NCBI GenBank assembly: GCA_963829235.1
Contig: CAWHIF010000007.1
Coordinates: 67,723 to 131,722, forward strand
Length of the DNA: 64,000 nt
Direction: 5' to 3'
Source: an uncultured Acidimicrobiaceae bacterium
GTDB lineage: Bacteria > Actinomycetota > Acidimicrobiia > Acidimicrobiales > RAAP-2
Shown: one piece after another, positions 3,049 through 60,238 of the stretch
How the letters are laid out: every line of letters starts with the position of its first letter
Position numbering within the stretch: position 1 is the stretch's first letter
Made by a program: the position numbers and the translations under genes
The notes under the pieces: generated by a model
The model's database searches: none
Seen by the model: the letters and a program-made list of their open reading frames with translations, nothing else
What the model was told of the DNA's origin: nothing

Positions 3049-3786
3049 GTGGCACGAATCGTGATGGTACACGGGGCATTCAACGAATTGTGGGGGCCGA
3101 ACGAGCTCAAGGCCCGGTGGCTGCCCGCGCTCCGGGACGGTCTCTGGCACCACGGTGTGGAGATCGACGACACCGATGCCGAGGTGTGCTTCTACGGGGA
3201 CCTCTTCCGAAGAGAACCGGGCACCGAGGAAGACCGGCGAATCGAGGAATCACGAGCCGGCATCGCCGACGCACTCTCCGATCTGTCCGGAAACGAGATG
3301 ATCCGGGCGCTGAGCCGGTTGGCGGGCGAAGCCGCGTTCGACCGCACCGTCGACCTGGTCACCATCATGGCCACGGAGCCGGACCTCCAAGCTCGGATGC
3401 GGGCACGGATGGAGTCCCTGGTCGACGGGGATACCCGGGTGATCGTGGCGCACTCGCTCGGATCCGTTCTGTCGTACATCGCCCTCAGCAACCACCCCGA
3501 CTGGAAGGTCGACACCTACATCACCCTGGGATCACCCCTGGCATCACCGATGTTGGACGGACTGGCGGGATCATTCGTCGATGACTTCGGAGCCTGGCCC
3601 GGTTCCGTCAAGCGGTGGGTGAACGTCCGCGCCCTCGACGACAAGGCGTGCTCCGTTTCGCTGACGGAGAGATTCGGCCCGAAGGTGGAAGAGGTGGTGG
3701 TCGACAACGGACATCGGGCCCACGCGCCGGAGCCGTACCTCAATTCGGCGGTCACCGGAGGGGCCATCGCCGCGGCGCTCTCCTAG
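3049..3786 (+). CDS. alpha/beta-hydrolase-fold (lipase/esterase-like) protein
   Basis: It has an IVMVHGAF N-terminal strand and an AHSLGS nucleophile elbow (GxSxG). The start is uncertain: GTG 3049 or TTG 2992 in the same frame. Confidence 0.7.
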   Translation: MARIVMVHGAFNELWGPNELKARWLPALRDGLWHHGVEIDDTDAEVCFYGDLFRREPGTEEDRRIEESRAGIADALSDLSGNEMIRALSRLAGEAAFDRTVDLVTIMATEPDLQARMRARMESLVDGDTRVIVAHSLGSVLSYIALSNHPDWKVDTYITLGSPLASPMLDGLAGSFVDDFGAWPGSVKRWVNVRALDDKACSVSLTERFGPKVEEVVVDNGHRAHAPEPYLNSAVTGGAIAAALS

Positions 3787-3852
3787 TCGATACCCGGGTG
3801 TCCACCGCAACCGGCGACGCCGGGGCTCCCGGGCGGCGCCGAGCCACCGGCG

Positions 3853-4632
3853 CTACTCCCGCCGGCACGAGACGCAGACGACGGCGGCGAACGGGGTCCA
3901 GAACCCCTCGTCACCCAGAAGGGCCATCGCCGCCTCGAACGTCTCCCGGCTCACGGGGGGAGCGCCGTTCGCCCGGGCGACAGCGGGATCGGTCAGCCGA
4001 TCCTCCACGGCCCGGAACGTGTGGGCCCAGAACGCGGCCTCGGCCGACCCGCCTTGGAGCATGGACGTGTCGACGGTCACGTCGAGGTCGGCCACGGGCA
4101 GCCGGGAGAGCGTGGTGGGGATCGTGCGGGCCCATGTCCATCCGGACACCAGTGCCGCGGCGACCTCGGCGAGTGCGGGCGATGTCATGCCGGCGAGGGG
4201 GAAGTAGTCGGCCTCCTCCAAGAGCAGCACGCCGCCCGGCCGGAGTGCGTCCACCAGCTCGGGGATGACGTCGTCGGCTCCGTCGAGGTGCATCAACGTG
4301 TTCCGGGTGTGGATGAGATCGACGGACGCCGGAGCGAACTCGAGGTCCTCGATCGACGCCTCCACGATCTCGACGTTGGACCGTCCGGCCAGATCGTGGA
4401 GGAGGGTCACATTGCGGTCGACGGCCAGCACGGTTCCGGTGTCACCGACACGCCGGGCCAGCCACGAAGCGATCGATCCGCCACCGGCGCCCAACTCCGC
4501 ACATCGCCATCCCTCCCCGACTCCAAGCTGGTCGAGGAGCCGGATGGACCTCGGGTCGGCCACAGCCTCGAGCAGACGAAGCCGATCTCCCTCGTCGGCG
4601 AGGGAGTTGTCGAACCAGTAACGATCCTTCAT
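3853..4632 (-). CDS. class I SAM-dependent methyltransferase
   Basis: SAM motif I reads CAELGAGGGS. The post-I acidic residue lies in LAVDRN. A Methyltransf_11/25-like core reads VDLIHTRNTLMHL...LRPGGVLLLEE. Confidence 0.82.
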   Translation of the reverse strand: MKDRYWFDNSLADEGDRLRLLEAVADPRSIRLLDQLGVGEGWRCAELGAGGGSIASWLARRVGDTGTVLAVDRNVTLLHDLAGRSNVEIVEASIEDLEFAPASVDLIHTRNTLMHLDGADDVIPELVDALRPGGVLLLEEADYFPLAGMTSPALAEVAAALVSGWTWARTIPTTLSRLPVADLDVTVDTSMLQGGSAEAAFWAHTFRAVEDRLTDPAVARANGAPPVSRETFEAAMALLGDEGFWTPFAAVVCVSCRRE

Positions 4633-4836
4633 GTCGTCAGTTTCGCAGCCCGGCCGGGGACGGCCACGAAGTCATCGGCCGGAAGGCGACCGGGCCCGAT
4701 CCGCCCGGCTGCACGGGCGGGGTCGGGCCCGGAGATCCGCACACCGGCTCTGGTACCATCGCTTCTTCCGACCGTGGCGGTCCCACCGGATGGCTCCGGC
4801 GGTTCCGTCAACGCAGGCAGAAAGGTCGACCAGGCA

Positions 4837-5124
4837 ATGATCCGACTCAGCGTGCTCTATCCGTCCACCGAGGGGGCCACCTTCGACCACGACTACTACC
4901 GCGACAAGCACGTACCGCTCGCGGTGAAGAACTGGGGGCTCGACGGCGCGGAGATCGACAAAGGGCTCGACGGTCCCTACGTCGCCGCGGTGCACTTCAA
5001 GTTCGAGTCGCCAGAGGCCCTGGCAACGGCGATGGGCGCCCCCGGAACCGGCGACGTACTGGCCGATGTGGCCAACTACACCACGATCGCCCCGGTCCTC
5101 CAGACCAGCGAGATCGTGGGCTGA
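4837..5124 (+). CDS. EthD-family protein
   Basis: The 95-aa product MIRLSVLYPSTEGATFDHDYYRDKHVPLAVKNWGL...AAVHFKFESPEALATAM shows the typical EthD/TIGR02118-like pattern. Confidence 0.8.
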   Translation: MIRLSVLYPSTEGATFDHDYYRDKHVPLAVKNWGLDGAEIDKGLDGPYVAAVHFKFESPEALATAMGAPGTGDVLADVANYTTIAPVLQTSEIVG

Positions 5125-5184
5125 GCGGAGGCCGCGCCGGCCAGGCGGGCCGGCCGGCCCCCTTGGGACCCCGTCGGCCTGTCG

Positions 5185-5943
5185 CTACGGGTGGGCCACC
5201 CAGTTCCAGTGATCCGACAGCTGCTCGAGGAACTCGGAGAGGCCGAGCGGTCCGATGCCTTCCATGTCGAACAACCGCAAGCCCACATCCCGGCACAGGA
5301 GATCGAAGAGCTCCTCGGACATTCCGGTGCCGAGCCCGTGCTCGAAGGCGATGACCGGCTTGGCTCGTCGCAAGGTGTCGACCGCCCCTTCGAGCACGTG
5401 GAGCTCCGCCCCCTCGACGTCGATCTTCACGAAGTCGGGAAGCCACCCGTCAGGACAGTTGTCATCCAGGCGTTCCGTCGTGACCGTGATCGTCTCGGTG
5501 CGCACCCCCTTGGGACGCCGGCCGGGCAAGTGCTCGGCCAGCCCGCTGAGGCCCTGGTGACCCGCATCGAGGACATGGACGAACTCCATCCGGCCGGCCA
5601 CGTTGGAGAGCGCACGCTCGCGGACCTCGATCGTCGGGAACTCCTGGGCCAGCTTCTCGCTCATGAGCGGAATGGGCTCGTAGGCGATGTGGTGACCGGC
5701 CGGGGCGACCCGCTGGATGTCGCGCAGGAAGATGCCCTGATTCGCCCCGACCTCGAGGCAGTTCGAGTCGGCCCGCAGTCCGAATCTGAGCAACAGCTTC
5801 AAGTGATAGTCGTCTCTCCGGTTTCGTCGGACGACCCAGTCGCCGTGATCCCCCTGGAGGAGGTGGACGAGCCGATCCCTGCCCTGCGCCACTGCCCGGC
5901 GTGCGCCCACCTGGTCAGCCCATCGCCCCAGCTCGTGCCGCAC
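5185..5943 (-). CDS. FkbM-family methyltransferase
   Basis: It contains CLEVGANQGIF (motif I) and DFVKIDVEGAELHVLEGA, characteristic of FkbM-type methyltransferases. It lies 10 nt downstream of the GtrA gene on the same strand. Confidence 0.85.
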   Translation of the reverse strand: MRHELGRWADQVGARRAVAQGRDRLVHLLQGDHGDWVVRRNRRDDYHLKLLLRFGLRADSNCLEVGANQGIFLRDIQRVAPAGHHIAYEPIPLMSEKLAQEFPTIEVRERALSNVAGRMEFVHVLDAGHQGLSGLAEHLPGRRPKGVRTETITVTTERLDDNCPDGWLPDFVKIDVEGAELHVLEGAVDTLRRAKPVIAFEHGLGTGMSEELFDLLCRDVGLRLFDMEGIGPLGLSEFLEQLSDHWNWVAHP

Positions 5944-19857: not shown

Positions 19858-20890
19858 ATTCCGAGGCCGGCTCTCACTCGGTCCCGACCCCGACCCGGCC
19901 CGGGGCGCGAGCGACGGTCGGAAAGCCCGCTCAACGATGCGGGCCGGCAGCCGCGGAGGCGAACTCGAGCCCGGCCCCGGCCTTCCCGTGCAACAGGTCG
20001 ACTTCTGCCACTTCGAGCAGGTGGACCGCGATGTCGCCATCCCCTGATCGGCCACACGTGCAGAGAAACCATGGGGCACAGCTGCCATCATCGGCCGACA
20101 GCGGCGGAACTGGCATCGGCTCATGGTGATCCATAGGCGTGCTTCTTACCCCGAAGATCCTGCCTTCAACCGGAATTCCTTCGGCAGCCCGAGGAATTCC
20201 ATGCCGCCACCACCAGGATCCGGTCCCGAGGGCCGGAATCGATCCCCTCGACGGCGCCAGCCTCGTCCGCCCGGGGAGAGCCCGCCCGTGCGCCCGGGAG
20301 AGGACGCGCTGGTCCCTTGCTGTGGAAGGGACCGGCGCACAAGCCCGTATCAGGAAAGGAAAGCGGCATCCTTCTCTTCCGAACGGGCTGCCCAGCCATA
20401 CCCCGGAGCCACGGGTCCCAAACATCACATCTCACTCCGAGGATCGGGGACGACTCATCGGCGATCGGTGGACAAAGAGGTTTGCCGGGTCCTGACCCCG
20501 GGTATTGGCATTCCGTGCCCATGCACTCGTGTTCAAAGGCTGGTTCGGATTCCACTCCCGGCTCGGAGGTGTGTCCGGCTTGCCTCTGTGCCGGCAACCT
20601 CCCACGCTGCCGAGGGGACGGACGGACGCCAACCAGGCGTCGCCGCCACGCGTGGGCTTCTACTGTCCGGCCGATCGAGCCAGGTCCCGCCGCCTGGTTC
20701 CCGGCCTGGCCCGCACCTTCTGTCGCAACAGGGGTCGCAACAGGACCCCGAGCGGTCCCCACGTGAATTCGATGGGCTCACTCACCGCGAATTGGGAACT
20801 CATGGGTGGAGCGCACGGATACGTCGATTCGTCTCCGGCTGATGGCCAGCCGGGATGCAGCGAGCCAACGAGCGAACATCGGAGGAGACC
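19858..20890 (+). other. about 1 kb spacer without a convincing ORF, rich in nested hairpins (candidate structured RNA or decayed DNA)
   Basis: All six frames give only Arg/Pro/Gly-rich overlapping ORFs. Perfect stems include GGAATTCC 20172-79 with 20193-200. GTGCGCC 20288-94 pairs with GGCGCAC 20334-40 and encloses GGTCCCTT/AAGGGACC. AGCCCGT 20342-48 pairs with ACGGGCT 20383-89. GGAGGT 20565-70 pairs with ACCTCC 20597-602 and encloses CCGGC/GCCGG. Further pairs are GACGCC 20625-30 with GGCGTC 20636-41, and GGGGTC 20731-36 with GACCCC 20744-49. Confidence 0.4.
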
Positions 20891-21520
20891 ATGAGGGTGC
20901 GGTTGCAGGCGATCACAATTGGTTGTGTCCTATTCATTGCCCTCTTCTCCTCGATGGCGGCATCGACGTCTGTCGCCACTGCCGCGACCTCGAACAGCAG
21001 CGCTGATCTCTATCCGATCGATTACGTCGTCAAGGCGACGACCACCCTGGCGAAGCTGAATGAAACGGTCACCGTACCCCCGGGCACCTTCAAGGGATCT
21101 CTCAACCTGGACAACTTCGTCCTGCGCGGAGTGTTGAGCCTCCCACCCGCGTCGACCACGGTGAGCCTGGGGGGAATCGGTCTGGCCACGGCAACCTTCA
21201 GGCTGGCTGAGACAAAGCCCGTCACCGGAAAGGTGAACCTCTCGGCATTGAAGGTCACCGCGACGTCGACCTTCAATGTCCTGGTCACCTCGGTGAAGCC
21301 GCTCGGGCTTCCGGTGAACCTCGTGGGCAACGACTGCGGAACGGCGACGCCGGTGTCGGTGACCTTCAGCGGGAAGTTCTCGTTCAGCGGAGCCTCGAAG
21401 TTCTCCGGCACGTACACCATCCCACCCCTCCAGAATTGCGGGTTGGCGACGACGGTCCTCAACGAGGTGATCCCGGGGCCGGGCAACGTGTTCAGCGCTT
21501 CGTTCGCGCCGAAGAGCTGA
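20891..21520 (+). CDS. secreted hypothetical protein
   Basis: ATG 20891 follows GGAGGAG. The signal peptide reads MRVRLQAITIGCVLFIALFSSMAASTSVATA. The mature part is Thr/Ser/Val-rich and beta-strand-like, with two Cys (NDCG, QNCG). I recognise no family. Confidence 0.7.
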   Translation: MRVRLQAITIGCVLFIALFSSMAASTSVATAATSNSSADLYPIDYVVKATTTLAKLNETVTVPPGTFKGSLNLDNFVLRGVLSLPPASTTVSLGGIGLATATFRLAETKPVTGKVNLSALKVTATSTFNVLVTSVKPLGLPVNLVGNDCGTATPVSVTFSGKFSFSGASKFSGTYTIPPLQNCGLATTVLNEVIPGPGNVFSASFAPKS

Positions 21521-21937
21521 GGCATAGCCTCGGTTTCCTGATTCACCGGTTCCGCCAGCCGGCGACGGGGCGGTTCGAAGATCTCAAGGATCCTGGGCGG
21601 GTCCGGTCGGAGATCGAGGCAACCGGGAGTCGTCCTCACTGGTCCCGGCTGATTCCGACCAGTCGGCTCCGACGGCGCCCTCTGGTGTGGGAGCCGGGTA
21701 CGCACAGGTTGCAGCTTCTGGGCCTCCCGCACGGGGTCGGGAATCGGGACGGACCTGGGTGCCCCCGGGCGATCTGCGGCGCCGGCTGCACGCGCCCGAA
21801 CTGATGTGGGACCCGTTTTCGAGCGGCCCACGGCGCAGTATTCTCTGAAGTACGTTTGACGCCCGGGTGACCTGCAGTTTTGCTGAGATGGGTCCGCGAG
21901 GGACTGCGGGCCCGGTTCCGACCAGAAGAGAGGGCAC

Positions 21938-22279
21938 ATGGAACACACATTCACCGTTTCGGTTGAGAGTGGCGGGCAATATTCCGTGGTCTCGGTGGTC
22001 GGCGAGATAGATAGTGCGACCGCCCCCGAACTCCGCGACGGCCTGCACGAAGCCACTGCCTCGGGGCCGTCATTGCTGGTGGTGGACCTCCTCCAGGTCA
22101 CATTCATCGACTCAACGGCTCTGGGAGTGCTGATCGAGGCATCGAATCGGGCCGAAACCGAGGGGCAGATGATGCGAATCGTTGTCTCTGAGCCGAGGAT
22201 CCTCAAAGTCTTCGAGATCACCGGCCTCACCGAGATCTTCGCAATCCGAACCTCCCGCGAGGAAGCGCTCGCTGGATAA
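21938..22279 (+). CDS. STAS-domain anti-sigma-factor antagonist (RsbV/SpoIIAA-like)
   Basis: It contains VVSVVGEIDSATAPELRDGL, then LLVVDLLQVTFIDSTALGVL (the phosphorylatable Ser context), then KVFEITGLTEIF. Confidence 0.87.
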   Translation: MEHTFTVSVESGGQYSVVSVVGEIDSATAPELRDGLHEATASGPSLLVVDLLQVTFIDSTALGVLIEASNRAETEGQMMRIVVSEPRILKVFEITGLTEIFAIRTSREEALAG

Positions 22280-22313
22280 GCGAACCGGTTACAGGAGTGG
22301 ATGGGGTGACCCG

Positions 22314-22706
22314 ATGACAGACATTGTGGAACTGAGTTTCCCGGTCATGGCGGACCTGGTGGTGCTGGCCCGACTGGCGGCGTCGACGGTGGCCACCCGC
22401 GCCGGCTTCGACGTCGAGGAGATCGAGGACCTGAAACTGGCGGTCGACGAGCTGTGCGTCTCACTGGTCCACGAGCGAACCAACGGCACGCTGGCTCTCC
22501 GGTTCACCCAGGACGAGGACACGGTTGAGGTGTCGTGCACGTATCAGCCGATCCTTGGTGGCACGGTCGAAGAACAATCGGTTCCCCTGACAGAAGGCCT
22601 GTCCGAGCGGATCCTCGATGCGCTCGTGGACGAACACGGCAACGACCACCGAGACGGTCTGCCCCGGGCCTGGTTGCGCAAGCGGCGGGCCCGCCAACGA
22701 GCCTGA
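22314..22706 (+). CDS. RsbW-like anti-sigma factor with degenerate GHKL kinase motifs
   Basis: Its position (between STAS and sigma, TGATG overlap with the sigma gene) and size (130 aa) fit RsbW/SpoIIAB. The N-box region reads AVDELCVSLVHE, with no Asn. No DxGxG G1 box is visible (VEVSCTYQPILGG). Confidence 0.7.
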   Translation: MTDIVELSFPVMADLVVLARLAASTVATRAGFDVEEIEDLKLAVDELCVSLVHERTNGTLALRFTQDEDTVEVSCTYQPILGGTVEEQSVPLTEGLSERILDALVDEHGNDHRDGLPRAWLRKRRARQRA

Positions 22707-23443
22707 TGAGCCCACCGGAGCGACCCCCAAGGTCGACTCGGGAAGAGTTCGTCGAATTCGCCCTCACGCGCGACGAGCGGCTCCGCAACGAGCTGGTGGA
22801 GTCCCATCTGGGATTGGCACATCAGTTGGCCCGCCGATTCGTCAGTCGGGGAGAGACCTATGACGATCTCGTGCAAGTGGCCTCCCTGGCCCTCGTCAAG
22901 TCAGTCGATCGCTTCGATCCTGACCGCGGCGTCGAGTTCAGCAGCTTCGCCACCCGCACGGTTGTCGGCGAGCTCAAACGTCACTTTCGGGACCGCGGCT
23001 GGGCCATCCGGGCACCTCGTCGTATCCAGGAGCTCTACCTCCAAATCGGACCGGCCATCGAGTCCCTCTCCCACGACCTGGGCAGACCGCCCACCATCAC
23101 CGAAATGGCGGAGTCGATCGGCGTCACCGAGGAGGCCGTCCTCGAGGCCCTCGAGGCTGGAAAGAGCTACCACCTCTCTTCGATAGATGCGCAAGATCGC
23201 AAAGAGGGCACCATCCTCGACCGCCTGGGCGACGTCGACGCCGGCTTCGACGGGGCCGAGGACCGACTGGCACTGGCGATATCTCTTGCCGACCTTTCGG
23301 AGCGACAGCGAACAATTCTCGGCCTCCGGTTCGTGGACGGTCTCACCCAATCGGAGATCGCAGAGCGCGTCGGGGTGAGCCAGATGCATGTGTCGCGACT
23401 ACTGGCCGACAGTCTGGCCGCGCTGAGAAGAGCGTTCGAATGA
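22706..23443 (+). CDS. SigB/SigF-family (group 3) RNA polymerase sigma factor
   Basis: Region 2 reads YDDLVQVASLALVKSVDRFDPDRGVEFSSFATRTVVGELKRHFRD. Region 3 reads PTITEMAESIGVTEEAV. Region 4 reads LSERQRTILGLRFVDGLTQSEIAERVGVSQMHVSRLL. Confidence 0.9.
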   Translation: MSPPERPPRSTREEFVEFALTRDERLRNELVESHLGLAHQLARRFVSRGETYDDLVQVASLALVKSVDRFDPDRGVEFSSFATRTVVGELKRHFRDRGWAIRAPRRIQELYLQIGPAIESLSHDLGRPPTITEMAESIGVTEEAVLEALEAGKSYHLSSIDAQDRKEGTILDRLGDVDAGFDGAEDRLALAISLADLSERQRTILGLRFVDGLTQSEIAERVGVSQMHVSRLLADSLAALRRAFE

Positions 23444-23588
23444 GAGCCCGGTCGCTCAACAGGGGCGTGAGCTACTATGTCAATCGTGCCGGAAAGTATC
23501 CACCGCTCCTGGTGAGCGAAGGAAAGGGCGGTTCGGCGGAGTTGGCTCCCAAGAGATCCCTCGACGACAAGACCATCCTGGGGCAGCA

Positions 23589-23912
23589 ATGACGGAACTA
23601 GATGACAGCGTGACCGCCTCGGTCAATGGCACCCTCGATCCCACTGGAGGGCTCACGCTCTTCCTCGCCGGGGAGCTCGACATCGTCAGTGTCGATGGTG
23701 TGAAGGAGGTCATCACCAAGCTCTTCGCCAGCAATCCACGGCGGGTGGTGTTCGACCTGGAGCGCCTGACCTTCATGGACAGTTCGGGGATCGCCCTGAT
23801 GCTACAGATGTCGAGGCGGGTGGATTCTGTCGAGGTCGTCAATGCCACGCCGATCGTGCGCAGGGTGATCGAAGCGACGGGGCTCGATCAGATACTCGGG
23901 CTCCAGTCATGA
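23589..23912 (+). CDS. STAS-domain anti-sigma-factor antagonist (second copy)
   Basis: It contains LFLAGELDIVSVDGVKEV, RVVFDLERLTFMDSSGIALML and RRVIEATGLDQIL. It shares an ATGA overlap with the next gene. Confidence 0.85.
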   Translation: MTELDDSVTASVNGTLDPTGGLTLFLAGELDIVSVDGVKEVITKLFASNPRRVVFDLERLTFMDSSGIALMLQMSRRVDSVEVVNATPIVRRVIEATGLDQILGLQS

Positions 23913-24508
23913 CCCTTCGGCGATCGTTCAGTATGGATCCGATGTCGGTAGCCGCCAGTCGGCGATTCGTCGGGGATACCCTGACCGACCTCCCAACCGA
24001 CATACAGGAAGCAGCTGTCTTGATGGTGTCCGAACTGGCCACCAATGCCATCGTGCATGCGACCACCGGATTTGAAGTCACCATCGAGCGGACGAAGTCG
24101 AAACTGCGGGTTGAGGTGGCCGACCTCGGCGGGGGCGAGCCGGAACTGCAGATGCCGTCGGTCAGTGAGCCCCACGGCAGAGGACTCCAGATCGTCAGGG
24201 AGCTGTCCGACGAGTGGGGCATCATCGATAGCGACGATGACAGGGGCAAGACCGTGTGGTACGAGGTCCGCGTGGGTCCGGCAAGGTTGCTCGACAGCGA
24301 CGATCCCACCACTCCGGAAGCGACCCGCCGGAAGGCGCATCAGGGGTCCGGGCAGGCGTCGAGAACCAGCCCGAGGACCCTGCGTCAGGAATCTGATCCG
24401 TCCGGCTGCGCGGGTGCGGATACAGCCCCCGACGGGCACCCCGGCCAGACGACGGAGGACCACGAGCACCCGTGTCCCTGCAGGTGGATGCAAACCTCGG
24501 TGGCCTGA
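23909..24508 (+). CDS. anti-sigma regulatory Ser/Thr kinase (HATPase_c_2-type) with a disordered C-terminal tail
   Basis: GHKL motifs are intact: N-box SELATNAIVHA, G1 VADLGGGEP and G2-like HGRGLQIVRELSDEWG. About 65 C-terminal residues are low-complexity. Confidence 0.82.
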   Translation: MTLRRSFSMDPMSVAASRRFVGDTLTDLPTDIQEAAVLMVSELATNAIVHATTGFEVTIERTKSKLRVEVADLGGGEPELQMPSVSEPHGRGLQIVRELSDEWGIIDSDDDRGKTVWYEVRVGPARLLDSDDPTTPEATRRKAHQGSGQASRTSPRTLRQESDPSGCAGADTAPDGHPGQTTEDHEHPCPCRWMQTSVA

Positions 24509-24551
24509 ACCCCCGCGGCCCTCTTGTGGATCGGGCCTGCGCAAAAAGGAT

Positions 24552-24576
24552 GTTTCGTCCGGCAGAGCCGGGGTAG
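24552..24576 (+). promoter_or_regulatory. candidate SigB/SigF-type promoter facing the giant surface-protein gene
   Basis: GTTTCG (24552-57), a 13-nt spacer, then GGGTAG (24571-76) fits the GTTT-N12-16-GGGTA pattern of SigB/SigF-class promoters. It lies about 265 nt upstream of ATG 24839. Confidence 0.4.
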
Positions 24577-24838
24577 AGAGGGCGTACGCGAATCCGCTGA
24601 CAGGCTCCGACACCTCGAGCCGGATTCGATGCCACTGAGCACCTGCCCCTCGGCTCAGCGGCAACCCTCTCTCTCTTCGCAGAGTAGAGGGCCGCGCATA
24701 CGCCCGACGGAGGAGGCTCCGGGACTGCCGGCGGTGGGACGGAGCCCGCTGGGGCTGGGCGGAATCGACTGTGGCGCCTGCCGTAAACTAGGGTATTGAG
24801 CGGGCGGTGCGGGGGTACGGCAGGACGGGGAGGCAGGA

Positions 24839-27800
24839 ATGAGTGCGTTGGCGGGAACAAACCATCCCAGACGACGCCTGGCGTCGAGCTTGTGCGCCGT
24901 CGGACTGCTGTTGACCGGCGTCCTCTCCCTTTCGGCGGTGGTGCTGCCCGCCCAAGAGGCCGGGGCGGCGACGGATACGGTGACGAACTGCTCTGGGGAT
25001 CCCGGCACGGCAGGTTCCTTGCCCAACGAGATCGCGGGTGCAGGCGCGGGGGACACCATCGTGTTCTCGCTGTCCTGTTCGACGATCACCCTCACGTCGA
25101 CGATCGTGATCTCGCAGGACCTGACAATCAACGGGCCTGGACAAACCAGCCTGGCCGTCGATGGCGGTGGAACCACGGAGCCTTTCCAAGTCTCGAGCGG
25201 CACCGTGTCCATCTCTGGTCTGACCATCCAGAATGGAAGCGGAACAGATGGTGGTGGCATCGAGAACAGCGGCAACCTCACGGTGAGCAACAGCTCCCTC
25301 GCCAGCAACTCGGCAACAGGTGGCGGCGGTGCCATCGACAACAGCGGCGGCGGAACCCTGACTGTGACCAGCTCAACGCTGTCGGGGAACTCGGCGGGAA
25401 CCGGTGGTGGCGCCATCGACAACAGCGGCAGCGGAACCCTTACTGTGACCAGCTCAACGCTGTCGGGGAACTCAGCCGGGACGGACGGGGGTGCCATCGA
25501 CAACCTGGGCACGGTCACAGTAGAAGAGAGCACCTTGTCGGGGAATACGGCCGGGAACTACGGCGGTGGCATCGAGAGCAACGACGCCACCATGACTGTC
25601 GACAGCTCCACTGTGTCGGGAAACAGCGCCATCAGTGACGGCGGCGGCGTCGACATCGAGGACGACGACGCCCACGGAATGTCAACGATCGACAACAGCA
25701 CCGTGACGAGCAACGGCGCGCCCTTCGGCGGTGGGATCCAGGACGATCAAGGTCCGCTCACGATCGGGGCCACCATCGTGGCCGAGAGCACGCCGGACAC
25801 CGACTGTGCCGTGAATGCCAGTGTTACCGACCAGGGCTACAACATCGACGACGACGGGACGTGCGCATTCACCGGCCCCGGCAACAATTCGGGCACGCTT
25901 GACGGTACCCTCGGATCGTTGGCCAACAACGGGGGGCCGACCCAGACCGTCGCCCTCGAGCCTGGGAGCCCCGCCAGCGGCCTCGTGACCGCCGCGCTGT
26001 GCCCGGCCACCGACCAGCGCGGTGTGACGATCATCACCACTCCATGTGATGCCGGCGCCTACGACACCAACGGAGCCTCCATCTCCTCCGTCACCGTCAC
26101 CGGGAGCCTGGCCGCCCCGACGGTGACCATCTCGGGAACCGGATTCGGCAGCGAGTCCGAGCTCGGTTCAGCGACGCCACCGCCCGGCTGCCCAACGACC
26201 GGCTCGGACTATGACAATTTCTACTACTTCTCCTTCTCCGATGTAACCGCGGGGTGGCAGGCCGGACAAGGTGGGAACTGCACCGGGGTGTCCATCTCGG
26301 GATACTCGGGCACCGGGATCACCTTCACGTTCGGCAGCGGCTACGGCAACGACTACAACTCCAACGAATTCGGTTCCCTCGGCTACGGTGACAGCTTTCA
26401 GATGAGCGTGCTGGGCGACACCTACAACGGCTCGATCGCCCCATTCTCACCGACGCCGACCATCACCTCGGTCACCATCACAGGTACCCTGGCCACCCCG
26501 ACGGTGACCGTGTCGGGGTCCGGGTTCGGCATGCAGTCCGACCTTCTGCCACCGGTGCCTGCAGGCTGCTCGAATACCGGCTCGGACTATGACAACAACT
26601 TCTACCTCACCGATGGCTGGGGGGCTGGAGAGGGGATCGTAGGACCCGAGGACTGCACAGGGGTGTTCGTCTCGTCGTACACAAGCAACCAGATCACCTT
26701 CACCTTCGGGAACGGCTACGGGAGCGGCAACGGCGAATACGGCGGTCTGTCCCCGGGCGACAGTTTCCAGATGCACGTGCTCGGCGCCACCTACGATGGC
26801 ACCGTCCCGGTCCTGCCGCCGAGCATCGACGGGGTCACCTTCGGCGGCAATCCCACCAATCCGACGGTGACCGTGTCGGGGTCCGGTTTCGGCGCCCTGG
26901 CCGACCTCGGGACGGCGGCCCCCAGCGGTAACGGCGGCTCCGACTACGGCAACAACTTCTACTTCTCCGATAACTCGAGCGGTGCCTTCGGAGCATGGCA
27001 GGCCGGACAGGCAGGCGACACGATCGGGCTGGTCATCTCGGTGTACTCGGACGACCAGATCACCTTCACCTTCGACGGCGATTACTCCGTGTTCGGCCCG
27101 GTGTCGGACGGCGACAGCTTCTCGGTGAGGCTGTTCGGGGTCACCTACAACGGCACGGCCTCGCTCGGTACCGGCTACACCTGTGCCGGCTTCGGGTCGA
27201 CCAGCTTCCCGGTGGTGGTGTCCGAATCGCCGGCCCCGCCGGCCAGCATCGACGACGGCGGGACCTTCCAGACGGCCCCGGCTGCCCAGCTGACCATCCC
27301 GGCGACGGTCATCAACGACTTCATCGGCGACGGGGCCACCTCGCTCACCATCGCCTCCCAGACCACCGCCATCGACGGCCTCAACGCGGTCGGGGGGTCG
27401 CCGAGCGGAGCAGTCGATCCCAGCACCGAGTCGGGCTCGGCCTCCAACCTGCCCCTCAGCCACACCCTGGCGGCCGACACCCCGTTCACCTACGACACCA
27501 GCTACAACCCGGTCACCTTCCAGACCGGTCCGGGGACCGGTCAGGTCTTCCTCACCCCCGGGGCCATCTCGGCCGAGGTCACCTTGGTCATCGGCGGGAC
27601 CCCGACCCCCGAGTCCATCTCCTGTACGCCCCCCTCCGGGGTGGCCGCTCTCGGGACGACCACGGTCAACGCGCCCGCGGCCGCCCCCACCTTCCAGGTG
27701 CCCCCGTCCACCCCGCCCCTCCAGAACCAGGTCAGCGCGGGCACCGACGGCGGATGGGGGGCCACCATCGCCAATACGTCCAGGGCCTCGGTCACCGGGC

Positions 27801-58825: not shown

Positions 58826-59134
58826 AAGGCGGCGGACGATTCGGCTCACCGAGGTACCTCCGAGTCCCGGTGTCGTGAACGAGGCGTGAGCATGGAGTCG
58901 ACCGAACTCAGGCGGTCGGGCTGACGCCGCGACTCATACGACCGTCTATCGTGGAAGGGACACCCCGTAACGCAAAGGGCTATGGGCTCGTTTGAGAGAG
59001 GCAAGGTGTGAGGGCCGGCGTCTGCCTGCCCAGAAGTCCGAACGGGGGACAATGGATGAGATCCACTGCCGAGACTCCTCCGAATTGATGATGCCGGCGT
59101 TTAGAGCGAGATCTTGAAAGGGTATGGAGCTTCG

Positions 59135-60238
59135 ATGACGCTTACTCGAGGAGCCCGCAGACCTGTTGCCGTGGTTCCGGTTGCCGTGTTCCTCACCGCG
59201 GTCGGACTGCTCATTTCGACGGTGCTGGCCATCCCCGGAAGTGCCACCACTCTCCCCTCCGGGTCGACGACGGCCCAGCACGGAGTCAATGTCTATGTCG
59301 AGGAGAACGGTGAGGCGGCCAACCAGTGGCAGGCCGACGCGACCAACGAGATGAGAGGCATCAAGTCCCTGGACGCGAACGCCGTTGCCATCGCGTTCCC
59401 GTTCTACACGCCCTCACTCCATGCGAACTGCGTCTACGCCTATACCGCGAACGAGTGCAGCGGAGGACCCACTTCAAAGTCGCCGGCGCCGGCCCGGGTG
59501 GCCGTTCTGGTCAAGGCGGCCCAGCTCGCCGGTCTGCACGTCCTCCTCCGACCCCTCATGGACGAGACCAATCTGAGCCCCGATTGGCGAGGTGACATCG
59601 ATCCGGCGAGCCGAGCGGCGTGGTTCACCAGCTACGCGGACATGTTGGCCCCGTATCTGACCATGGCCCAATCGGACGGGGTGACCGATTTCACCATCTC
59701 GCTCGAGCTGGCCAGTCTGGCGACGGCCACACAGTGGTCGTCACTCATCACATGGGCCAAGAAGATCTACCACCGTCAGTTGGTCTTCGCCACAAGTTGG
59801 AGGGCCAGCCTCCCGGGAGGCAAGGGCGAGGTCCACGCGGGCACCTCCGTCGGCATGGACTCTTATCCAGGCCTTACCAAAGCCACCCCCACCTGGTCGG
59901 TGGCCCAGCTACTGGCCGGGTGGAACTCGTACCTCAAATCCAAGCCGTACGGGACTGCAGATAGCAATGTCACGATCGACGAGGTCGGTATCGAGGCCGT
60001 GGACGGTGCCTACAAGACCCCCTACATCGCCGTCAGCGGTAAGTTCAACCAGTTGATTCAGGCCAACTGGTTCGACGCGGCCTGCCAGTTCTACAAGGCC
60101 CACAAGCAGAGCGGTATCTATTTCTGGGGCCCGGATTTCACCTTCAACGATGGGAAGCTCACGTCCGCGCCCGTTCCCAGCGAACCCGAACAGCTGCAAC
60201 CAGACGGCTGGGCCGCCATCAAGGCGTGCTTCAAATGA
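59135..60238 (+). CDS. secreted TIM-barrel glycoside-hydrolase-like protein (GH113/GH5-like pattern)
   Basis: It has a signal/TM segment (RRPVAVVPVAVFLTAVGLLISTVLAIPGSA). The pattern reads NAVAIAFPFY...LVKAAQLAGLHVLLRPLMDE...WRGDIDP...WFTSYADMLAPYLTMAQSDGVTDFTISLELASL. The family assignment is tentative. Confidence 0.55.
   Translation: MTLTRGARRPVAVVPVAVFLTAVGLLISTVLAIPGSATTLPSGSTTAQHGVNVYVEENGEAANQWQADATNEMRGIKSLDANAVAIAFPFYTPSLHANCVYAYTANECSGGPTSKSPAPARVAVLVKAAQLAGLHVLLRPLMDETNLSPDWRGDIDPASRAAWFTSYADMLAPYLTMAQSDGVTDFTISLELASLATATQWSSLITWAKKIYHRQLVFATSWRASLPGGKGEVHAGTSVGMDSYPGLTKATPTWSVAQLLAGWNSYLKSKPYGTADSNVTIDEVGIEAVDGAYKTPYIAVSGKFNQLIQANWFDAACQFYKAHKQSGIYFWGPDFTFNDGKLTSAPVPSEPEQLQPDGWAAIKACFK

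Follow-up and report, generated by a model that had tools for sequence, protein, structure and literature searches.

Does a single protein both sequester the sigma factor and phosphorylate its antagonist in the SigB/SigF-type locus found at positions 21938-24508 of the window, or are these two tasks divided between paralogues? The window, by which we mean the whole stretch of 64,000 nucleotides that was analyzed, has a G+C content of about 65% and lies on contig C7 of the genome assembly of an uncultured Acidimicrobiaceae bacterium (G000; 4.86 Mb, 19 contigs, 88% complete), the closest public relatives of which are metagenome-assembled genomes from soil and peat labelled Acidimicrobiaceae or Acidimicrobiales. 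C3 designates a second contig of this genome, and L numbers designate loci of relatives or paralogous loci. Five genes, all on the + strand, make up the locus, and their order, strand and coordinates are those given by a first-pass annotation of the DNA. The anti-sigma-factor antagonist STAS1 (21938..22279, 113 aa; PF01740, E 2.4e-18; 80.7 bits with TIGR00377) is followed after 34 nt by an anti-sigma factor of the RsbW/UsfX type devoid of kinase motifs, recognized by an RsbW hidden Markov model and by profile alignment and referred to below as the RsbW-like protein (22314..22706, 130 aa), then by a sigma factor of the SigB/SigF/SigG family (22706..23443, 245 aa; TIGR02980, NF005514). After an intergenic spacer of 145 nt (23444..23588, + strand) come STAS2, a second anti-sigma antagonist homologue (23589..23912, 107 aa; PF01740, E 1.5e-15; also passing TIGR00377), and the gene for a HATPase protein resembling the GHKL serine kinases RsbW2 and SpoIIAB (23909..24508, 199 aa). 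The stop codon of the anti-sigma gene overlaps the start codon of the sigma gene (TGATG) and that of STAS2 overlaps the start of the kinase gene (ATGA), and these overlaps predict that anti-sigma/sigma and STAS2/kinase are translationally coupled pairs. As detailed below, we consider it likely that the locus brings together the parts of a partner switch of the mycobacterial type (UsfX/RsbW1 together with RsfB-RsbW2) that acts on a SigF-like sigma factor.

The protein encoded next to the sigma factor had been proposed to lack both the Asn of the N-box and the G1 box. Its start Met is the same as in its homologues, and the RsbW, SpoIIAB and HATPase_c_2 models of Pfam and NCBIfam match it only over the N-terminal half (residues 2-76). 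To compare the protein with B. subtilis RsbW (PDB 6m36), we used a profile built from 27 homologues, which aligns at E 8e-14. In this alignment, AVSEACTNAVQH faces AVDELCVSLVHE of RsbW, which puts Ser50 at the position of the N-box Asn. Likewise, VEVSCTYQP is aligned with VIVADEGDS of RsbW and with VEVADLGGG of the kinase of the locus, so that Cys75 takes the place of the G1 Asp, and the GGLGL motif of the RsbW G2 box falls opposite a gap. The sole Asn nearby, N56, pairs with an Asn in a loop of RsbW instead of the N-box position, which indicates that the N-box motif has been lost and not shifted. The profile alignment thus bears out the absence of both boxes and excludes an alignment shift.

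This absence is not a peculiarity of one genome. A word-indexed search recovered 603 homologues of the RsbW-like protein, most of them 130 aa long and from Acidimicrobiales metagenomes, and an exhaustive search of 1.84 billion cluster representatives (clusters at 50% identity) with the family profile returned 724 representatives at E <=1e-10. The N-box Asn was found in none of the 150 best of these 724 representatives (all at E ~8e-22 or better) and in none of 80 Acidimicrobiales orthologues, the position being occupied by S, L, A, T, P or M across both sets and by S, L, A or M in the Acidimicrobiales set. A DxGxG motif of any kind was present in only 4 of the 150 best representatives. Glu46, the catalytic base, and Cys48 are near-invariant in the 80 Acidimicrobiales loci. 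The family-wide Asn-less state argues for an old condition, and the loss of kinase motifs, as judged from the sequences, is a conserved and selected state of the family and not decay. Kinase-dead anti-sigma factors of the RsbW type would thereby constitute a large conserved family, and the automatic label "serine/threonine-protein kinase RsbW" that many of the homologues carry is probably wrong for all of it.

The AlphaFold2 model of the RsbW-like protein (mean predicted local distance difference test, pLDDT, 85; predicted template modelling score, pTM, 0.80) retrieved with Foldseek the structures 6m37, 6m36, 8ih8, 8jzt, 1th8 and 1l0o, with query TM scores (TMq) of 0.69-0.76 and E down to 8.5e-9. 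TMq was 0.69-0.73 at 28-31% identity for the B. subtilis RsbW structures (6m36/6m37), and 0.71-0.73 at 25-27% identity for M. tuberculosis UsfX, solved with RsfB (8ih8) or with SigF (8jzt). According to the model, the RsbW-like protein thus keeps the Bergerat/GHKL alpha-beta fold of RsbW and SpoIIAB. A shortened ATP lid was considered and rejected, the stretch from strand to helix counting about 21 residues in the anti-sigma factor versus 18 in the partner kinase; in the modelled structure, the ATP-lid region has lost residues and not the loop itself. The C-terminus of the RsbW-like protein, WLRKRRARQ (residues 120-130; 22671-22703 of the window), is near-invariant throughout the family, with W120, R122 and R125 invariant. 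We know of no discussion of a counterpart of this motif in RsbW or SpoIIAB.

The second HATPase protein presents the opposite picture and was rightly described as a kinase with intact GHKL motifs. In an alignment with SpoIIAB, its SELATNAIVH, DLGGG and GRGLQIV segments fall on the N, G1 and G2 boxes. Across 23 orthologues these boxes vary little or not at all, and E42, N46, H50, D72 and G90-R91-G92 are invariant. Of the two HATPase proteins at the locus, the one linked to STAS2 is alone in keeping the full N, G1 and G2 set. Among 40 HATPase genes near the loci of relatives, all kinases encoded after STAS2 have a complete DxGxG, as do only a few of the other proteins. Direct comparison of the anti-sigma and kinase families with hhalign gave a probability of 32% with the N-box helix misaligned, and only the C-terminal half of this alignment was usable. 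The catalytic core (residues 1-121; 23909..24271, + strand) matches PF13581 over profile positions 1-124 of 127 as well as PF02518, and is modelled by AlphaFold2 with pLDDT ~90-96. It is followed by a disordered, low-complexity tail (residues 122-199 and the stop codon; 24272..24508, + strand) with pLDDT 40-59 and no secondary structure. An odd disordered tail of about 65 residues had been noted at this place; the disorder is confirmed, the length is not, as the tail counts 78 residues, and it is odd in length only. Tail length and sequence differ among orthologues, some of which have none, and among close relatives the ratio of nonsynonymous to synonymous polymorphism (pN/pS) is 0.34-0.50 for the tail versus 0.05-0.23 for the core; the tail is translated, under weak constraint.

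Both STAS proteins carry a phosphorylatable Ser, as had been supposed. Ser59 of STAS1 (FIDSTALG) and Ser65 of STAS2 (FMDSSGIA) coincide in alignments with the Ser that is phosphorylated in RsbV and SpoIIAA, and both proteins also align with M. tuberculosis RsfB. D58 and S59 of STAS1 are kept in 80 of 82 orthologues, and DSSG of STAS2 in 17 of 17, all but one of these having the kinase gene immediately 3'. Neither STAS1 nor STAS2 contains a Cys, by which redox control of the RsfA type is ruled out.

The division of labour suggested by these motif states has an experimental precedent. In M. smegmatis, RsbW1, encoded directly upstream of sigF, binds SigF and does not phosphorylate RsfB, and RsbW2, whose gene lies downstream of rsfB in the rsfB-rsbW2 operon and whose N, G1 and G2 boxes are conserved, is the sole kinase of RsfB (Ser63) and does not bind SigF (PMC7693655). 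The PP2C phosphatase RsfR dephosphorylates RsfB and is controlled by a CHASE3 histidine kinase (PMC10950880). The N-box of M. tuberculosis UsfX (8ih8, 8jzt) reads DEVCTRLI, without Asn, as compared with DELCVSLV in the RsbW-like protein. The locus shares with the SigF system of M. smegmatis and M. tuberculosis an Asn-less anti-sigma gene directly upstream of a SigF-type sigma gene, a separate operon of STAS then kinase with N, G1 and G2 intact, two STAS antagonists, and promoters, here candidate ones, of the GGTTT...GGGTA type. A PP2C associated with the STAS-kinase pair may be a further resemblance, the gene being linked to the pair in relatives and unlinked in this genome. The locus differs in that the two modules, unlinked in mycobacteria, are contiguous, in that a Ser-type STAS gene is included in the anti-sigma/sigma operon, and in that both STAS proteins are of the Ser type and Cys-free, leaving no equivalent of the redox-regulated RsfA. 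Moreover, the PP2C is here a membrane sensor with two transmembrane (TM) segments, in place of the REC-PP2C that a CHASE3 histidine kinase controls, and the kinase has a disordered tail.

The first-pass annotation had read the locus as a split design, with sequestration and phosphorylation performed by different paralogues, and had held this wiring to be undescribed. The reading itself is upheld by the motif states, the linkage described below and the M. smegmatis precedent. The novelty is not, the same division having already been demonstrated by experiment in M. smegmatis (PMC7693655, PMC10950880). The locus is a further example of a known division of labour and not a new design, and it opens no new question. 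Its interest is to extend the M. smegmatis split design to Acidimicrobiia, a deep-branching and uncultured actinobacterial class, and to offer, as a compact five-gene locus together with an orthologous PP2C, a small self-contained set for reconstituting such a switch.

Synteny was examined in 100 loci, 20 from family-level relatives within the order and 80 from closer Acidimicrobiales. The anti-sigma gene is followed by the sigma gene in 99 of the 100 loci, and for about 70 of the 80 closer ones the gene immediately before it is of the STAS1 type, so that STAS1, anti-sigma and sigma make up a near-universal core in these 80 Acidimicrobiales loci. Eighteen of the 80 also have a STAS2-kinase pair within 5 kb of the core; in 11 of them the pair follows the core in the same orientation, as in the window, and in 7 it is upstream and divergent. 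A second pair unlinked in relatives had been named as grounds for refuting the split reading; among close relatives the pair recurs beside the core, and in two gene orders, which argues for a functional tie, and the linkage of the STAS2-kinase module to the sigma core is probably functional. In 14 of the 18 loci, a PP2C gene is situated directly 5' of the pair. STAS2, the kinase and the PP2C form a lineage-restricted accessory module added to the universal core.

The genome of the window possesses an orthologue of this PP2C, unlinked to the locus (C3:384585-386159) and sharing 71% identity with the PP2C that is linked in L053. It has two TM segments with a loop of some 210 aa between them, then a SpoIIE/PP2C domain (residues 360-544). 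No Pfam match to RsbU_N was obtained at E up to 0.001 in either this orthologue or the L053 PP2C, SpoIIE being the only match. The place from which the gene is missing can be located. In L051, whose anti-sigma factor is 80% identical to the RsbW-like protein, a 549-aa PP2C gene stands between xylB and the gene of a secreted protein, at a site that corresponds to the junction ~20433-20515 of the window. In the window, xylB is followed by a non-coding gap of about 1 kb (19858-20854) which is conserved at the DNA level in relatives. Positions 1969-2371 of L051 match 19995-20433 of the window at 69%, and positions 4236-4457 match 20515-20708. Both L051 and L052 have the 549-aa membrane PP2C gene between the two conserved blocks, and the window is without it. 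The junction is flanked by two GTTT-N-GGGTA motifs that point away from each other, at 20399 (- strand) and 20480 (+ strand). A decayed remnant of the PP2C in 19858-20854 was looked for with tblastn and rejected (best E 0.18). Since the flanking blocks are conserved and the L051 PP2C lies between them, the gene is absent here and not decayed.

From the observed gene content, motif states, folds, family-wide conservation and synteny, we infer binding and phosphorylation partners, a role for the PP2C and a use of promoters as follows. The GHKL-fold anti-sigma factor, presumed to have lost ATP and Mg binding, would only sequester its translationally coupled sigma factor. An unphosphorylated STAS protein would bind the anti-sigma factor and set the sigma factor free, STAS1 acting as the universal co-transcribed partner and STAS2 as an RsfB-like accessory partner. 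Because the anti-sigma factor would be without kinase activity of its own, a kinase in trans would be needed; the intact kinase would phosphorylate Ser65 of STAS2, and perhaps Ser59 of STAS1, and thereby switch the antagonists off. On a signal, the two-TM membrane sensor PP2C, encoded here at C3:384585-386159, would reverse the phosphorylation. The freed sigma factor would then transcribe from GTTT-N15-16-GGGTA promoters at the genes of secreted and surface proteins that flank the locus.

The locus may also be compared with the classical switches. The order STAS, anti-sigma, sigma is that of RsbV-RsbW-SigB (6m36/6m37) and SpoIIAA-SpoIIAB-SigF (1th8, 1l0o), the fold of the anti-sigma factor is the same (TM 0.71-0.76), its N-terminal half is 29-31% identical to RsbW, and the phospho-Ser motif of the STAS proteins is the same. 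In contrast to RsbW and SpoIIAB, which are bifunctional as anti-sigma factors and kinases, the anti-sigma factor here has no N, G1 or G2 box and the kinase is a distant paralogue. A STAS protein, a GHKL kinase and a PP2C grouped next to a sigma module are also reminiscent of the RsbS-RsbT-RsbU tier of the Bacillus SigB system. However, the PP2C lacks the RsbU N-terminal domain and is membrane-anchored, and the order is PP2C, STAS, kinase. No RsbR/stressosome partner and no additional STAS gene were found at the locus.

Several observations weigh against a mycobacterial-type switch. The profile of the RsbW-like family is closer to the kinase-active B. subtilis RsbW (E 8e-14) than to UsfX (E 1e-6); with this, and with only 25-27% identity to UsfX, orthology with the mycobacterial proteins is unproven and the Asn may, on sequence grounds, have been lost convergently. 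STAS1 and STAS2 score equally against the RsfB of the PDB (38 bits each), a comparison too uninformative to name either one "the" RsfB equivalent, and such naming was abandoned. Of 80 other family-level genomes, 51 were found to have the anti-sigma factor and only two (G073 and G031) a STAS2 orthologue, unlinked in both cases, and STAS2-kinase is therefore not a general control of STAS1. The PP2C gene is missing from the locus both in the genome of the window and in its three closest relatives (L057-L059). Finally, motif loss is by itself no strict proof of zero activity in the RsbW-like protein, and UsfX, equally Asn-less, has been reported to phosphorylate myelin basic protein (PMC1847690). 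This last report would also favour a protein that keeps some non-canonical nucleotide-dependent activity, as a weak kinase or NTPase, in which case the locus would be a classical RsbV-RsbW-SigB system with an extra pair. The near-invariance of the catalytic-base Glu46 could be explained in this way, and a paper on nucleotide binding and hydrolysis by UsfX points in the same direction, as far as can be told from its citation within PMC7693655. Nevertheless, the family as a whole lacks the Asn that serves as Mg ligand, the Asp that binds adenine and the glycines of G2, and M. smegmatis RsbW1 gave no phosphorylation of RsfB in vitro (PMC7693655), so we regard residual activity as highly unlikely.

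The restricted distribution of STAS2 can also be accommodated by a two-tier cascade like that of RsbS-RsbT-RsbU, in which STAS2 would hold the kinase until a signal caused the latter to phosphorylate STAS2, be released and activate the PP2C, which would dephosphorylate STAS1-P, STAS1 alone being the antagonist of the anti-sigma factor. In relatives, PP2C, STAS2 and kinase do move together, the anti-sigma factor has STAS1 as its universal partner while STAS2 is lineage-restricted, and conservation of the STAS1 Ser in 80 of 82 orthologues means that something must phosphorylate STAS1. That something would have to be a further kinase, however, and none is encoded at the locus; the PP2C has no docking domain of the RsbU_N type, its SpoIIE domain (360-544) standing behind a two-TM sensor; and in the nearest studied system, that of M. 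smegmatis, the STAS-kinase pair is used directly on the anti-sigma factor (PMC7693655). Such a cascade appears unlikely to us. It could instead be imagined that STAS2 and the kinase, with their PP2C, are an independent module with another output, the kinase perhaps sequestering a different target or the second SigF paralogue, placed next to the core by shared regulation or by chance. The 145-nt gap before STAS2, with its own conserved TACTAT block, would fit, as would the unlinked STAS2 orthologues of G073 and G031 and the existence on C3 of a second STAS/anti-sigma/sigma cluster with a sigma factor 70% identical. On the other hand, linkage in 18 of 80 relatives and in two gene orders would be difficult to account for if the modules did not work together, and the adjacent anti-sigma factor has no kinase of its own. 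We hold this independence to be quite unlikely, and a partner switch of the mycobacterial type is retained as the likely one.

The sigma factor passes the model of its family: TIGR02980 (SigBFG) gives 258.8 bits for a cutoff of 234.35, the best model match is NF005514 (SigF, 264.9 bits), and sigma-70 regions 2, 3 and 4 are all recognized (PF04542, PF04539, PF04545). The mycobacterial SigF promoter consensus is GGWWT-N16-17-GGGTAY (PMC7693655), and a similar motif, GTTT-N-GGGTA, was found four times in the window versus 0.36 expected. The SigB/F-type promoter-like copy at 20480..20504 (+ strand, N16) lies upstream of the gene of a 221-aa secreted protein and of the STAS1 operon, with the divergent copy at 20399..20423 (- strand) near the 20433-20515 junction. 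A third copy (24552..24575, + strand, N15) is located just 3' of the kinase gene and faces the gene of a 1266-aa surface protein, and a fourth (59099..59124, N17) comes directly before the gene of a 374-aa secreted protein (59114-60238). The copies at 20399, 20480 and 24552, three of the four, are kept in L057-L059. Copies on the + strand precede genes of secreted or surface proteins, and those at 20480, 24552 and 59099 suggest a regulon rich in such proteins.

Two further non-coding blocks were noticed. The spacer that separates sigma from STAS2 contains a stretch with TACTAT (23473-23478) that relatives share, as aligned with L057, L058, L059 and L051, and that might give STAS2 and the kinase a promoter of their own. 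As consensus scans of 20300-24900 gave no sigma-70 promoter and no convincing terminator, this promoter is one that we only infer. Upstream of STAS1, positions 21850-21937 hold a block conserved in relatives, TGAAGTACGTTTGA ... GGTGACCTGCAGTTTTG ... GGGTC, whose spacing agrees neither with the consensus of sigma-70 nor with that of the SigF type.

The second cluster of the genome, at ~586-590 kb of C3, is a paralogous set consisting of a STAS1-like protein (49% identity), an anti-sigma factor again without the Asn (53%) and a sigma factor (70%). A convergent gene of this cluster encodes a 124-aa HATPase in which the N-box and G2 are present and the G1 glycines absent (TDTSNA), and PP2C genes with GAF and PAS domains are found as well. 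Near the loci of many relatives there is, in addition, a third class of small HATPase_c_2 proteins in which E..N..H and GRG are kept and the G1 glycines are absent, the G1 region reading for example DESNRMP, DRSSQRP or DLSPAAP (loci such as L060 8886-9305, L095 6169-6621 and L100 4137-4550). Some of their genes lie 3' of sigma in convergent orientation; others stand back to back with the kinase gene or precede STAS1. We did not retain degenerate G1 glycines as a firm criterion of inactivity in these paralogues, because the active B. subtilis RsbW itself reads ADEGDSF. By their sequences, the third-class proteins may be RsbW3-like decoys, or else, given the RsbW example, kinases that are still active.

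A broader picture can be drawn, which we regard as doubtful. The kinase-dead anti-sigma factor, far from being peculiar to mycobacteria, would be the default and ancient design of the SigF switch across Actinomycetota (at least 724 clusters). In this Acidimicrobiaceae clade, one intact kinase and a membrane PP2C would set the phosphorylation of STAS1 and STAS2 together, an undescribed hybrid of the mycobacterial and two-tier Bacillus systems, and the G1-degenerate HATPases beside the loci and on C3 would be RsbW3-like decoys.

The surroundings of the C3 cluster (C3:586000-597000, locus L031) show sigma, anti-sigma and STAS1-like genes on the strand opposite to GAF/PAS-PP2C and HATPase genes, with a second PP2C, a REC protein and a PAS histidine kinase further along. 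Within L031, the GAF-PAS part (3529-4899) and the GAF-PP2C part (4412-5689) are in overlapping reading frames, a split that probably reflects a frameshift or an assembly error within one GAF-PAS-GAF-PP2C gene.

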